A DNA stretch of 64,000 nt from Nannocystis pusilla (GCF_049060185.1 NZ_JBMEQO010000002.1); one strand, 5' to 3'. Numbered from the stretch's first letter, positions 1 to 64,000 are shown. The notes: generated from the sequence alone by a model not told the origin. Made by a program: numbers and translations.

Positions 1-1298
1 GGGCGAGCCGAGCAGCTGCTCGAGCGCGCGGGCGAGGCACCAGGCGCCGCGAGTGTCGTGGGCGTCGCGGGCGATGATGAACAGCGGCTCGACGCCGTGC
101 AGGGCGAGGCCGGCGCGGGTGATCACGTGATCGAGGGCGAGGCGGGCGGCGCGGGCGTTGCCGTCGACGAAGGGGTGGAAGAAGCAGACGTCGAGGTAGA
201 CGCGGGCGGCGCGGACGGTCAACGGCTCCGCGGAAGCGGCCTCGGCGAGGCAGGCGGTGAAGCGCTCGAAGGTGTCGGCGGCGAGGCCGTAGCGGTCGTG
301 GCCGCCGCGGGCGAAGGCCTCGGTGGTGCGGAAGCGGGGCGCGTCGATGCCGAGGACCTGCGCCTGCCAGGAGGCGAGGACGTCGAAGGTCAGCGGGTCA
401 CCGGAGCGGGCGTGGGCCCGGCAGGCCGTCAGAGCGGCGAGCATGCGATCGGCGCGGACCGGGTCGCGGGGCCGATCGCGCTGTTCGATGAAGAGGCGGT
501 GACCGTCGCGGTGGAGCAGGTTTCGCCGCCGCGAGCGCGGGGGTCGCGGAAGGCAGCGACGCGGGTCTCGAGCCAGGCGGCGAGGGCGTCGGGGCGCGGG
601 GCGGAGTCAGAGTCGCGGGCGGCGTCGGCGACGGCGAGACCGAGCCGGGCACAGGCCTCCTGGGCAGTGGCAGGATCGGGCGCGCACCAGCTCGAGAAGT
701 GGCCGCCGACGACGTGCTCCACGGCGAGCTGGACGTCGCTACCGGCGCGGCCGAACGACTCGAGGCACCACAGGAGCGCGCGGGTGAAGGTGTGGTACCA
801 GGCGTCCTCGGCGCCGGTGCGCTCGACGACGAGCGGCAAGAGGCGGGCCGCGGCGCGCTCGACCTGATCGGCGAGCGGGAGGTCGGCTGTCTCTTGGTAC
901 AGGTCGGCGAAGGTCGCGGCGAGGTCGACGAGGTATTGTTGCCACTCGGCGAGCGCCGCGACGACGCGCTCGACCGTGGCCTGCGGGTCGGGGTCGTCGC
1001 GGCGGAACAAGCTGTCGCGTGAGCAGCACCAGCCGCGCACCGGACCGCCGCCGCCGGGCTCGCTGGCGGCCCAGTGCCAGCCGGAGGCCCACGCGCCGTA
1101 CTCGCCGACGAACTCGCGGTCGAACTGCTCGATGAGGGTGTCCCGGACCTTCTGCGGGACCGCGCGCCAGCTCGCGCCGCGATCGGCGACTGTCGCCTGC
1201 ACGAGCCGCTCGACGATCCGCCGCGCCGGCTCGAGATCGAACTCGTGCCCGGCCGGGTCGACGTCGGACCAGCGCGAGCAGGACACGGTCATGAGCAT
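1..1298 (-). CDS. Fic/Doc family protein; 3' end runs off the window start; apparent frameshift near 545
   Basis: My minus-strand translation of 100-300 gives ...LDVCFFHPFVDGNARAARLALDHVITRAGLALHGVEPLFIIARDAHD..., a Fic-type motif HPFx(D/E)GNxR. The upstream part lies in the 429..1394 ORF frame, so two frames must be joined near 545. Confidence 0.6.
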
Positions 1299-1444
1299 GG
1301 CGGGCAGGGTATCACGCTGCGGCCGAGGCGGCCCGCGGACGAGACGACTCGGTGCTCGGTGAGGCGGACTGCGGCCGCGGCGGGTGCGTTCCACGGGCGA
1401 GATGGTGGCGTCCGGCGCGGCCGCGGGTGTTAGACTGGGCGCCC

Positions 1445-1798
1445 ATGGCTCGTCCGCGCGCGCGCAAGCTCGTGATCGCAGTCGTCGTCGGGCTCGCGGC
1501 GGCGGCGTACTTCGTCTACCCGTATGCGGTGGTGGCCTGGCTGGCGCGCTCGATCGCGGCGGCGACCACCGCGAGCGAGGAGACGGAGGCGCTGTGCCGG
1601 GCCAATCAGTGGTTTCATTCGGGCTGGGCGCCGACGTATTCGGTGGCCACGCGCGACCGCGACGGCGCGGAGCTGCGGCCGGGGCAAGACGGCTCGTACG
1701 AGCGCGTGGCCGCGGTCACGCTGACGTGGATGACGGGTCAATCGGTGTCGCGGGAGCTGCTGACGCGCGACGGGCTTTCGTGCGTGTTCGGTGAATGA
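1445..1798 (+). CDS. small hypothetical membrane-anchored protein
   Basis: Internal start MARPRARKLVIAVVVGLAAAAYFVYPYAVVAWLA has one hydrophobic helix. No family was recognised. Confidence 0.35.
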   Translation: MARPRARKLVIAVVVGLAAAAYFVYPYAVVAWLARSIAAATTASEETEALCRANQWFHSGWAPTYSVATRDRDGAELRPGQDGSYERVAAVTLTWMTGQSVSRELLTRDGLSCVFGE

Positions 1799-2041
1799 GG
1801 GGCGCGAGCCGCGGGAGCGTGGATTGTAGGGATGGCCTTGGGGACAGATTATTGGTCGATTAGATTGTCGTGGGTGAATAACGACGAGCGGCGAGGCGCG
1901 GGCGCGCGAAGAGCCCGAGCGGCGGCGCCCGGGCTTGATGGTGATCCCGGCGGGCTCGTGGCTGGAGCCCGCGCAGGCATCGTCGTTGCGGCGACTTGGG
2001 TCAAGAGCCCGCGAGGAAAATCGTCGGTGTGAGGATCGCGG

Positions 2042-2560
2042 TCATGCGGCGCCGCGCTCTTCCTCTTCGCCTTCTTCGACTTCTTCGCCCTCTTCGACGG
2101 CGGTCATGGCTTGCATGGCCTCGTCGCGGGCCTGCTCGTACTCCTGGGCGACCTGGGCGGCTTCGCGGTCGGAGAGCACTGCGCGGGCCATGGGGAACAG
2201 CTCGCCCTCCTCCTCGTCGACGTGGTGGCCGACCATGTCGGCGAGCACGTGGACCTTGGCCGACCACTCCTCGTCGCGCGGGGACATGGTGGCCAGCTCC
2301 TCGAGCAGGACGTCGACCTGGCGGTGCTCCTCGAGGCTGACGCGGATCTTCTCGGAGGCGCTCCGCTCGCCCAGCAGCCGCGAATAGACGGTCGTCTCCT
2401 CGCCGCGGGAGTGCGGCACGAGCTTGAGCTGGATCTCGGCGAACAGCTTCAGCGCGGCGTTGCCCTTGGCTTCCTTGAGCTGGTGCAGCAGCTCGCTCAC
2501 TTCCTCGTGTTCGCGCTTCAGGATGTCGTAGATCTGGATCTGAGGCTGGGTCTTGGGCAT
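2042..2560 (-). CDS. hemerythrin HHE cation-binding domain protein
   Basis: ILKREHEEVSELLHQL, LEEHRQVDVLLEEL and HHVDEEEGELFP are H/E motifs typical of hemerythrin-like proteins. The tail is acidic. The ORF is intact. Confidence 0.75.
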   Translation of the reverse strand: MPKTQPQIQIYDILKREHEEVSELLHQLKEAKGNAALKLFAEIQLKLVPHSRGEETTVYSRLLGERSASEKIRVSLEEHRQVDVLLEELATMSPRDEEWSAKVHVLADMVGHHVDEEEGELFPMARAVLSDREAAQVAQEYEQARDEAMQAMTAVEEGEEVEEGEEEERGAA

Positions 2561-61887: not shown

Positions 61888-63151
61888 TCAACCGCGATCG
61901 AACGCCGCCGCGATCGCCTCGTTCTCGAGGCAACTCGTCGCCACCCGCGACAAAGTCGGGTCGTGCCGGTGCAGGCACGGCCGCGCGCCCGGGAAGTGCA
62001 GGTCCGGGTCCTCTCCCGCTTCGACCTCGAGCACGAACAGCGCGTCACGGGTCACCACGATCGGCATGTCGGCGGCGAGCGGCGCCCGACGCTTCTCCGT
62101 CCCGTCGCGGGTCAGCGCCACCAGCTCGTCCTCGGTGCGAAGCAGCCACCCGTCGTCCCACGCGAACACTTGGTCCGCCCAGGCGTCGGGGATCATCGGG
62201 AACGTCAGCACCTGCGCGCCGTCGGCCGCGTGGACGCTCCAGCGCGGCTCGGTCCCCGCGTCGTCGTCACCGGGCAGCGACACCAGCAGCTCCCCGGCGT
62301 CGGTCACCGCCGCCCGTGTCGCCGATTCGTGCCGCAGCTTGCTCCCGCGGACCTGCACCGGCGCGGCGATCGCCTGGCCGGTGCGCGTGTCGAACACGAG
62401 CGCCTCGACCATCTCGACGAGCCGCGTGCTCGCCGTCGTCCCCGGGGCCGCGCAATACGCCCCCGCGATGCGCGTGAACACTGCGAAGCGCCCGCTCGGC
62501 GCGACCCGCAGGTTCCCGCCGCTCCCCGACGTCAGCCGGTCCGTCGCCAGCGGGCACTTGGTCGGCCAATCCGCCGGGAACCCCGGGGCGAGGGTGAAGC
62601 GAGCCCGACGTCGGGCGACCAGCCGATGACCCGATCCTCACGCGGCTCCGACGGCCGCAGAAGCACCAGCGTCCCGCCCTCGCTCGCCAGCAACGTCTCC
62701 ACGTACTCGAGCTGCGGCGCCGGGCCCAGCGCCGCCTCCCAGGCCATCGGCGGCCCCTCGAGCACGTCCCCTTCGTGCTTGTGCAGCAGCGCCACGAGCC
62801 CTGTGGCCGCTCCGTCGGCCCTCCTCGTCTCTGCCACCGCCCGCAGCAGCGGCAGGCTCGGCGGGCCGGCCGAGTGCCCCTTGCGCGGCCCCGAGGCGCG
62901 CAGGCCCAGCTTCGGCCCCGGCGCCAGCTCGGCCCCGCGAAACGTCAGCACCGCGCCCGCGCCGTACTCGACCGAGACCTGGCGATCGCCTTCTTTCAGG
63001 TGAAGCTCGAGCCCGATCAGCGCCAGCTCCGGCGCCCCGCCCATCATCTGCAGCGTGGGCCCGAACGCCATCACTTCGCGGGACTGGGGCGCGCACGCGA
63101 CGAGCGCCAGCGCCAGCGCCACGCACCCCGACTTGCTCGCGTCGTCTGCAA
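61888..63151 (-). CDS. hypothetical lipoprotein assembled from 2-3 frames
   Basis: MVADDASKSGCVALALALVACAPQ (lipobox) ...VSVEYGAGAVLTFRG...; downstream MFTRIAGAYCAAPG...PRWSVHAADGAQVLTFPMIPDAWADQVFAWDDGWLL in the neighbouring frame. Confidence 0.35.
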
Positions 63152-63348
63152 CCATTCGCGCTCCACCGTACCACGAACCCTGGGGCCGGAGCTTCGTCCA
63201 GGCGACTTCGGGTTGTCCAGCCAGTGGCGGATTCGACCGTCTCATTCAGCCAGTGAGGAGCGCGACCTGGTGCAGTCGGATGGCTGCACGGGAGCGCAAG
63301 GCTGACTGCGCGGCTGCTTGCCCACGTTTCGGCTTGCGCCAAAGTCTC

Positions 63349-63622
63349 GACATGCTCAAATGCGCTGTCACCCTCATTTTCTCCCTGGGACTTCCCCGCC
63401 ACCGAGGAGCGCCCATCGCAAGTTGCGACGCTCACCGAGCCGGGGGATGGGGCCGAGGAGAGCCCCGCGAGCTCCATGAGCCTCGAGGAGGTCGAGGCGA
63501 ACGGCGACGAACGGGCGTGCGACGTTTCGTGCCAGTCGACCGATGGCTCGCAGACCTGCTGCTGCACTGTCGGCCAGAAGTGCGTCATCTATTGGTCGTA
63601 CTGCGAGTGCGATGCCGCGTAG
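63349..63622 (+). CDS. candidate small secreted Cys-rich peptide; unambiguous core is 63476-63622 (48 aa, 8 Cys)
   Basis: MSLEEVEANGDERACDVSCQSTDGSQTCCCTVGQKCVIYWSYCECDAA*. A possible signal-like start MLKCAVTLIFSLGL at 63349 is one frame off. Confidence 0.35.
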
Positions 63623-63646
63623 GCTCGACGACGGTCTCCCGTCGGG

Positions 63647-64000
63647 TCACTCGGGTGGGCAGACGCGCGGGAGCAGGACGCGCTCGACGCCGTCGTCGAA
63701 CGCGACCACGAGCTTGCCCTCACGCTCGGCGCGTACGGTGCCGGCGCCGAACTTCGCGTGACGCACGCGGCGAGGCGACGACGGGGCGGGGGCCTCTGCG
63801 AGGTCGTCGCGTCGCGTCGCACGCTCGAGCAAGCGTCGGAGTCGTTCGAGATCGTGACGCCGGCGCAGCGCCGTCCGTCCGAGCCGCACGTAGACCGCGT
63901 CGGCCGAGGCGAGCGCCTCCGCGGCGCTCGTATCTCCGTGGAGCACCGAGAGCACGGCGCGTCGCTCCGGCCATGCGGCGTCGCTGCCCGGCACCCACGT
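63647..64000 (-). CDS. UvrD-like helicase C-terminal (Tudor-like) domain protein; partial, may continue past window end
   Basis: RVRHAKFGAGTVRAEREGKLVVAFDDGVERVLL resembles the UvrD/PcrA C-terminal KFGEGxV...V.F motif. Confidence 0.35.
   Translation of the reverse strand, partial: TWVPGSDAAWPERRAVLSVLHGDTSAAEALASADAVYVRLGRTALRRRHDLERLRRLLERATRRDDLAEAPAPSSPRRVRHAKFGAGTVRAEREGKLVVAFDDGVERVLLPRVCPPE

Follow-up and report, generated by a model that had tools for sequence, protein, structure and literature searches.

Genuine genome-wide pseudogenisation by reductive evolution is known from Mycobacterium leprae. Decay of this type resembles the locus described here in that many genes are interrupted while their neighbours are intact. 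Nanopore-only bacterial assemblies (Flye plus medaka) resemble it too, since they show deletion-dominated 1-nt errors which are enriched in homopolymers and specific k-mers and recur at the same sites from one run to the next, with split genes and an inflated count of coding sequences (CDS). Assemblies from R10.4.1 data polished with medaka are usually better than one error per kb.

Within the genus Nannocystis, the assembly of type strain Na p29 is based on ONT R9.4.1 only, while the assemblies of RBIL2, FL3 and BB15-2 are PacBio HGAP assemblies (PMC10435759). Nannocystis sp. MIELM was sequenced by ONT R10.4.1 only and processed with Guppy, Flye and medaka; 14,925 CDS were assigned to it, as compared to 11,265 for UBH4, an isolate of similar size (PMC12766979).

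In this study, we analysed a stretch of 64,000 nucleotides from Nannocystis pusilla, referred to as the window. Judging from alignments with related genomes, the split genes are very probably consensus deletions of a nanopore-only assembly from the N. pusilla group, and not the outcome of gene decay.

Broken and intact genes

Gene models, made up of called genes and start-trimmed ORFs of relatives, were mapped to the 64-kb window by tblastn. Stop-to-stop ORFs of relatives were rejected as models, since wrong frames stay open in DNA of 72% GC and make them misleading. A frame correction is needed in 24 of the 45 modelled genes and 21 need none, which bears out an earlier reading of the sequence alone that had put the share at about half of the recognisable genes. 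In a codon-usage Viterbi segmentation, the window showed 54 direct same-strand frame switches, versus 5-10 per 21 kb in relatives. The sequence-only reading was also right in naming as broken RR1, hemerythrin 2, the beta-lactamase-family gene, AraC, LysR, several lipoproteins, all three GT9 genes, hldE, the heptose-cluster SDR, both GT4/GT1 genes, both hybrid kinases, CheB (198 aa) and CheR, and in naming as intact the ABC exporter, ADH, Ppa, GST and RR2. What it took for a single fusion kinase with four sites is really two genes, a 530-aa PAS-HisKA_3 kinase (two sites) and a 1006-aa CheB-CheR-PAS protein (one site). The entire heptose/LPS-core cluster (hldE and three GT9 genes) is among the 24. 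The features are as follows.

2953..3011, minus strand: hemerythrin 2 (gene 2626-3093); 2-nt deletion at 2953 and 1-nt deletion at 3011, net -3; Logan short-read contig and N. exedens agree
4855..5601, minus strand: sigma-70-like gene; about four deletions of 1 or 2 nt (4874, 5376, 5542, 5576) against one reference, Logan contig L046; repair gives a 316-aa single frame
7375..8075, plus strand: RR1 (NarL/FixJ type); 1-nt deletion 7877, relative to Logan and N. exedens, parts REC from the GerE HTH; Pfam REC in one frame, GerE in another
9008..10595, minus strand: PAS-HisKA_3-HATPase kinase, 530 aa; deletions 9054 and 9784 (the latter backed by three genomes); tblastn spans three frames
10596..13596, minus strand: CheB-CheR-PAS fusion, 1006 aa; deletion 12920, four genomes; repair restores q6-1006
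22147..23255, minus strand: beta-lactamase-family gene (PF00144); deletions 22872 (lone C between G runs), 23116 (G4 to G3) and probably 23231; Pfam profile divided between frames
23301..24112, minus strand: AraC regulator; deletion 23721 (AA to A), three genomes; HTH_18 in the downstream frame only
26787..27964, minus strand: GT9 heptosyltransferase, 395 aa; deletions 26892, 26926 and 27117 (2 nt), five genomes each; identity up to 96% after repair
28326..29416, minus strand: GT9 heptosyltransferase, 365 aa; deletions 28410 and 29324, five to six genomes
29417..30875, minus strand: hldE (PfkB and CTP_transf_like), 487 aa; deletion 30671, five genomes; two frames needed
31821..32554, minus strand: heptose-cluster SDR, 246 aa; deletions 31973 (G5 to G4) and 32142 (2 nt), five genomes; identity rises from 76% to 98% after repair
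32656..34519, minus strand: GT4-SIS fusion, 623 aa; deletions 33249 and 34247, five genomes; three frames needed
34520..35572, minus strand: GT1-type glycosyltransferase (328-434 aa in relatives); deletions 34538 and 35172
35573..36070, minus strand: hypothetical gene, 173 aa; deletions 35635 and 35669, five genomes
36071..37146, minus strand: GT9 heptosyltransferase, 361 aa; deletions 36080 (C5 to C4) and 36736 (edge of a (GC)n repeat); Na p29 carries its own deletion at the same spot
37195..44583, strand ".": intact block of seven genes (hemerythrin, EEP, FAD oxidoreductase, SDR, GAF kinase, ADH, Ppa); single-frame full-length tblastn; protein sequences identical to NCBI MFY0542079-085
44594..46061, minus strand: hybrid kinase REC-HisKA-HATPase-REC, 490 aa; 2-nt deletion in the (GC)n repeat 45423-45436, relative to N. 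exedens (PacBio, Illumina) and JBMPIV; same 2-nt deletion in Na p29
46062..46652, minus strand: CheB, 198 aa; deletions 46296 and 46593, the second identical in Na p29
46659..47470, minus strand: CheR, 271 aa; deletion 47234 (G4 to G3), three genomes
47471..50845, minus strand: CHASE3-GAF hybrid kinase, 1127 aa; deletions 48478, 48557, about 48690 and 50326 (2 nt, (GC)n repeat)
51919..53376, minus strand: TSP3-repeat lipoprotein; deletion 51926 near the 3' end; ORF extended to 546 aa versus 487-492 aa in relatives
55416..56304, plus strand: LysR regulator, 300 aa; deletions 56044 and 56253, four genomes; three frames needed
58503..59446, plus strand: hypothetical gene, 312 aa; deletion 58801, three genomes
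59700..60720, plus strand: lipoprotein, 343 aa; deletions 60024 and 60483 against one reference only (RBIL2); repair restores 343 aa
61891..63155, minus strand: lipoprotein, 422 aa; deletion 62603 against one reference only (Na p29); repair restores 422 aa

With the relatives' bases put in, 20 of the 24 genes had one open frame without stops that spanned 95% or more of the orthologue. Genes that are actually intact could in principle be misread as shifted in a genome of 72% GC, where wrong frames open over hundreds of codons; the window has 265 ORFs of 100 aa or more, which overlap across all frames, so mis-framing by eye is easy. The Fic gene illustrates this: the apparent shift would be accounted for equally well by two ORFs, an upstream one with its end at 429-431 and a Fic ORF from about 444. 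For the window as a whole such misreading has next to no probability and is already refuted by nucleotide alignments, which reveal the missing bases directly, and by gene repair. Pfam domains are moreover split across frames, and the 64 kb contain no more than six high-GC3 ORFs of 900 nt or longer.

The Fic region is covered by no relative among the compared genomes. ORFs in 3.3-7.4 kb, 24.4-26.7 kb and 56.4-57.4 kb yielded no Pfam domains. These segments, which hold about seven model-predicted frame switches, are absent from or poorly aligned to all relatives. An in-frame stop at 38591-38593 was considered as a nonsense mutation and rejected; the FAD oxidoreductase truly ends there, and a separate EEP gene comes next in the same frame.

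Polarity and placement of the deletions

Comparison with the orthologous region in relatives, proposed earlier as a check, covered eight Nannocystis genomes. The support came, among others, from assemblies made with PacBio HGAP, from the Illumina-based N. exedens FOMX01 and from a short-read contig of Logan. We found 43 window-private frame-breaking differences, each backed by at least two of the eight genomes (range 2-6). In all 43 polarised events it is the window that lacks bases (1 nt in 38 cases, a GC/CG dinucleotide in five), and the same eight-genome comparison gave no confident insertion among the window-private frame-breaking events. Another 20 deletions are seen against one reference only. 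Private frame-breaking and in-frame events number 32 and 3 in the window, versus 0-4 and 1-8 in each of the PacBio, Illumina and short-read relatives.

Overall, such deletions occur about once per kb (0.97 per kb within genes), more often than the one break per 1.5-2 kb first estimated. Poisson placement by gene length predicts 19.2 untouched genes, and 21 are observed. Confident sites number 39 in 42.4 kb of coding DNA and 4 in 5.3 kb which the model calls noncoding, with neither intergenic excess nor coding depletion. The sites look patchy, but dispersion in 4-kb bins is not significant (index about 1.5, hand calculation from bin counts). Scarcity of error-prone contexts was tested as a cause of the error-free block at 37.2-44.6 kb and does not explain it.

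The frameshifts might be real and stem from a very recent, massive pseudogenisation, for instance in a mismatch-repair-deficient mutator. The deposited sequence does read so, and mutators favour 1-nt indels in runs. On the window's own branch, 55% of the private substitutions in broken genes and 59% of those in intact genes hit codon position 3, at equal rates (chi-square p = 0.56). This signature excludes old pseudogenes and not very recent ones, as a very recent burst would likewise keep it. However, such a burst demands 43 deletions with 0 insertions and 0 nonsense codons, the latter being absent from every mapped gene in correct-frame tblastn HSPs. It must also have struck about 24 of 45 genes, the whole heptose/LPS-core cluster among them, with coding DNA not depleted of events relative to intergenic DNA. 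In contrast to decay of the M. leprae type, the window has no nonsense mutations, insertions, larger deletions, IS elements or relaxed selection, and its sister genome is intact at every site. Taken together with the recurrence described below, real pseudogenisation appears very improbable.

Recurrence in Na p29 and the probable source

A substitution tree groups the window with RBIL2 and Na p29 with JBMPIV, so that Na p29 is not the window's sister. Nevertheless, deletions are shared or abutting between the window and Na p29 at eight sites (15498, 15559, 34538, 36736, 45435, 46593, 48557 and 50326), as compared to about 0.2 coincident sites expected by chance. At these sites both assemblies have an intact sister genome, and the recurrent deletions are absent from PacBio, Illumina and short-read relatives. 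Identical non-repeat deletions in a non-sister nanopore-only genome, with both sisters intact, argue against real pseudogenisation. The Na p29 assembly (GCA_026626665.1, ONT R9.4.1 only) displays the same artefact class as the window, even though strain and flow-cell chemistry differ and the density is lower (about 0.45 per kb). In addition to the eight sites shared with or next to those of the window, it has eight private frame-breaking coding deletions, and its annotation contains split calls, for instance a hybrid kinase called as 260+224 aa and a 203-aa GT9.

The proposal of long-read assembly indels rather than pseudogenes is thus upheld by the all-deletion polarity, the absence of nonsense codons, the purifying-selection signature kept in broken genes, the Poisson-like breakage by gene length and the same deletions in a non-sister nanopore-only assembly. 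In a nanopore-only consensus, a single base or, at times, a GC dinucleotide would be lost roughly every kb, with a frame shift at each loss, so that about half of the genes look split. The errors would depend on context, that is on homopolymer length, GGGGGT, GGGA and (GC)n. The intact proteins of the window are exact matches to the NCBI N. pusilla proteins MFY0542076-094; the source is most probably strain MIELM, and the platform hence most probably ONT. The window differs from usual nanopore-only residual error in its density of about 1 per kb and in where most errors fall, namely in short runs (1-3 bases) and (GC)n repeats of a 72% GC genome rather than in long homopolymers. One error per kb is high for R10.4.1 with medaka, and therefore low depth or an unsuitable model must be assumed.

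The importance of this finding is practical and concerns annotation quality, not biology. CDS boundaries, pseudogene flags and gene counts are unreliable in both the window's assembly and the type-strain Na p29 assembly. Pan-genome, biosynthetic gene cluster and gene-loss analyses based on them will overcount genes and miss orthologues. The split ORFs are best read as single genes, among them those of a complete heptose/LPS-core cluster and of two hybrid-kinase modules linked to chemotaxis.

Sequence context of the deletions

The sequence-only reading had placed the junctions in G or C runs of at least 4. This holds for 14 of the 43 confident sites, versus 4.3% of random junctions, while the other sites touch no such run. 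Among the single-base cases, the deleted base belonged to an ancestral run of at least 4 in 11 of 38 and to a run of 1-3 in 27 of 38 (71%). Ancestral runs of at least 4 account for 29% of deletions versus 3.6% of bases, and those of at least 5 for 18% versus 0.8%. Deletion risk thus climbs steeply with homopolymer length, from a loss of roughly 0.03% of single bases to several percent of G5/C5 runs. Since long runs are scarce, the majority of errors nonetheless affect runs of 1-3 bases. G/C homopolymers of at least 4, as the stated cause, are too narrow.

Both strings quoted as examples are present, at 7870-7883 and 22867-22877. The one at 22868 does not illustrate a homopolymer cause. At 22872, as at 26926, the deletion removed a lone C flanked by G runs; the G5 run therefore arose from the deletion and did not cause it. 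To judge from the Logan contig, the same may hold for a lone A at 7877, where the N. exedens alignment is ambiguous.

Basecalling failure caused by DNA modification at specific Nannocystis motifs is an unlikely origin of the deletions. It would fit the recurrence of eight sites across R9.4.1 and R10.4.1 assemblies of different strains, and also the location of many sites in GCGC-rich repeats or in motifs that recur, e.g. CAGGGAG. Yet no single motif covers the 43 sites, the dependence on homopolymer length fits unmodified k-mer error, and methylation-caused basecalling artefacts are more often substitutions than deletions. It is rather doubtful that the recurrent sites mark a conserved Nannocystis modification which derails basecalling, e.g. 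at GC-repeat or GGGA/GGGGGT-containing motifs; if so, the artefact map would double as a methylome footprint.

Consensus error of a nanopore-only assembly, the preferred reading, has its especially prone contexts in GGGGGT, GGGA and (GC)n. All six 5-to-4 events lie in GGGGGT (strands collapsed), even though only about 31% of G5 runs have such context; dependence on the 3' neighbour is unexpected from replication slippage, a further point against real pseudogenisation. Three of the five 2-nt (GC/CG) deletions sit in (GC)n repeats. As the contexts GGGGGT, GGGA, (GC)n and a lone C between G runs show, a search for long homopolymers alone would miss most errors in high-GC genomes. Strand-specific loss of C was considered as the origin of the strong GC skew (+0.13) and rejected, as the relatives share the skew and the deleted G:C of 17:13 fits base composition.

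Broken reading frames and the comparison set

Only six open reading frames of at least 900 nt in the 64-kb window (72% GC) have the high third-position GC typical of real genes. Codon-usage Viterbi segmentation gave 54 direct same-strand frame switches, while the same model applied to relatives gave 5-10 per 21 kb. Pfam places REC and GerE HTH of the NarL/FixJ-type response regulator RR1 in different frames, and the match to the beta-lactamase profile begins at position 84 in one frame.

With the window ABC exporter as query, the orthologous region was located in six genomes of Nannocystis, with protein identities of 75-97%, and more loci were obtained by three protein searches and exact-protein look-ups. 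The set comprises Nannocystis sp. RBIL2, N. pusilla Na p29, N. pusilla GCA_049337375.1 (JBMPIV01), N. punicea FL3, N. bainbridge, N. exedens DSM 71 (a PacBio assembly and the independent Illumina assembly FOMX01) and a Logan short-read contig (SRR26602172). Of the window, 54.6 kb are covered by one relative or more and 47.7 kb by two or more. About 9.4 kb have no relative (1-1415, 3352-4371, 24918-26711, 56338-57469 and the last 0.8 kb); frame switches there are model predictions, the proposed frame break in the Fic gene is likewise putative, and Pfam gave no signal in these stretches apart from the Fic domain itself, matched at the window's 5' end. The first four are either missing in all eight relatives or cannot be aligned to them, and are probably strain-specific insertions. 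The window has a persistently positive GC skew of about +0.13, and its minus strand holds most genes. Since the relatives share this skew (0.10-0.13), it is a genuine regional feature.

Many called genes of cleaner relatives need two or three frames when mapped to the window. An orthologue model was available for 45 genes, of which 24 have one or more frame-breaking events and the remaining 21 have none. The sequence-only reading, which had named many frame-broken genes and their intact neighbours, was almost entirely right, and both strings it quoted occur in the window, displaced by 1-3 nt. Its single fusion kinase, in turn, proved to be a merger of two adjoining genes, a PAS-HisKA_3 kinase and the following protein, which also neighbours two NarL-type regulators:

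10596-13596, minus strand: 1006-aa protein with CheB methylesterase, CheR methyltransferase and PAS domains

Assembly error or pseudogenisation

The window was aligned to all relatives, gaps were clustered, clusters with a net length not a multiple of three were kept, and each was assigned to a lineage by the genomes showing the gap. This yielded 43 frame-breaking events private to the window, each backed by two or more genomes. Every one is a deletion in the window, of a single base in 38 cases and of a GC/CG dinucleotide in five. No confident insertion was found in the window relative to the relatives, the two candidates disagreeing between genomes. A further 20 window deletions lie at sites covered by one reference only. 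Inside genes the deletion rate is 0.97 per kb, and frame-breaking events private to the window number 32 versus 3 in-frame. The relatives JBMPIV, Logan contig, RBIL2, N. punicea, N. bainbridge and N. exedens have 0, 1, 1, 1, 2 and 4 private frame-breaking events, respectively, and 1-8 in-frame private events each. When the relatives' bases were put in at 66 window sites, 20 of the 24 broken genes became one open, stop-free frame spanning 95% or more of the orthologue; the other four were near-complete or had a variable terminus. Identity of the repaired SDR of the heptose cluster rose from 76% to 98%.

The frame breaks are real in the present sequence but very probably an assembly artefact, and five lines of evidence favour error over biology. 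The interpretation as assembly indels rather than pseudogenes is supported by the deletion-only spectrum, a selection signature, Poisson breakage, recurrence in Na p29 and the probable nanopore-only source. No nonsense codons or large lesions were found among the mapped window genes. Broken and intact genes have window-private substitutions at the same rate and with the same distribution over codon positions (position 3, 55% versus 59%, p = 0.56); selection has therefore acted on the broken genes along the branch leading to the window. Breakage scales with gene length as in a Poisson process (21 clean genes observed, 19.2 expected), the whole heptose/LPS-core cluster is hit, and no excess of deletions in intergenic over coding DNA was found. 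The substitution tree pairs the window with RBIL2 and Na p29 with JBMPIV. At eight sites frame-breaking deletions are nevertheless shared by, or abut in, the window and Na p29, against a chance expectation of about 0.2 coincidences, and both sister genomes are intact at all eight. Examples are 46593 (a lone T), 48557 (a G5 run) and two GC repeats, at 45435 and 50326.

Sequence context and density of the deletions

The deleted base lay in an ancestral run of 1, 2, 3, 4, 5 or 7 in 10, 9, 8, 4, 6 and 1 cases, respectively. Runs of 1, 2, 3, 4 and 5 hold 59, 29, 8.8, 2.8 and 0.7% of window bases, and runs of 6 hold 0.04%; from this comparison, deletion risk climbs steeply with run length. The proposed association with G/C homopolymers holds to that extent, but 71% of deletions fall in runs of 1-3. 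Likewise, junctions in G/C runs of at least 4, which occur once per ~120 nt in the window, are enriched (4.3% for random junctions) but account for only 14 of 43. A rule confined to runs of four or more G/C is too narrow. In the relatives, the G runs at 22872 and 26926 are separated by a single C; the G5 run read in the window is therefore a product of the deletion. The Logan contig suggests that a lone A was lost likewise at 7877, where the N. exedens alignment is ambiguous.

Of the five dinucleotide deletions, three fall within (GC)n repeats. With strands collapsed, GGGGGT is the context of all six 5-to-4 events but of only ~31% of G5 runs, and by approximate count GGGA is over-represented at deletion sites. 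Such an influence of the 3' neighbour suggests a k-mer effect of basecalling rather than replication slippage.

Seven consecutive genes at 37195-44583 (6.7 kb coding) have no deletion, versus 16 in 26.8-37.1 kb, although dispersion over 4-kb bins is only ~1.5 (calculated by hand from bin counts). Density of homopolymers and GC repeats did not explain the clean block at 37.2-44.6 kb; local read depth is a candidate cause.

Sequencing platforms, related assemblies and further features

Eight intact window proteins match exactly the NCBI N. pusilla proteins MFY0542076-094 on a 12,694,743-bp contig. Nannocystis sp. MIELM was sequenced only on ONT R10.4.1 and processed with Guppy, Flye and medaka, and has 14,925 CDS versus 11,265 in the similar-sized UBH4 (PMC12766979). 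We infer that the window assembly is that of MIELM and so nanopore-only. In the protein accession series only two numbers separate HAD and hemerythrin, where five genes lie, which would fit broken genes without a protein record. UBH4 is ONT-only as well.

Na p29 was sequenced with ONT R9.4.1 only, and RBIL2, FL3 and BB15-2 are PacBio HGAP assemblies (PMC10435759). With nine private frame-breaking events Na p29 is an outlier among the relatives, and its type-strain assembly has the same artefact as the window. Its loci L037 and L040 show eight private frame-breaking deletions plus eight at or next to the window's sites. Split or short calls in Na p29, and example loci, are:

hybrid kinase: 260 + 224 aa
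GAF kinase: 187 + 235 aa
GT9 heptosyltransferase: 203 aa
Ppa: 153 aa
L040:3992-5460, 7369-8675 and 13336-13947: example loci

A third N. pusilla-group genome (XWX07315-330, 12,213,092-bp contig), with an FAD oxidoreductase of 180 versus 474 aa and an EEP protein of 257 versus 268 aa, probably contains similar errors. The biological interest of the frame breaks is low and the message is practical: split ORFs in the window and in the Na p29 type-strain assembly are to be handled as single genes.

The window also carries intergenic tandem arrays, which align poorly between species, and two further features:

3696-4116, 5987-6214, 8871-9042 and 18569-18959: tandem arrays
15963-16555: tandem array, with a 21/40-nt unit in ~23 copies at 15963-16426
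28057-28308: tandem array, 51-nt unit, 4.9 copies, 94% matches
53874-53998, plus strand: in-frame 18-nt repeat, 6.9 copies, KAAEPV-type, directly after the lipobox of a small lipoprotein
32656-34519, minus strand: 623-aa fusion of a GT4 glycosyltransferase and SIS_2 (GmhA-like sugar isomerase) in the heptose cluster

Copy number of the KAAEPV-type repeat varies between strains. The heptose cluster also carries hldE, a GmhB-type HAD phosphatase and three GT9 genes, and the GT4-SIS_2 fusion is kept in all Nannocystis relatives.
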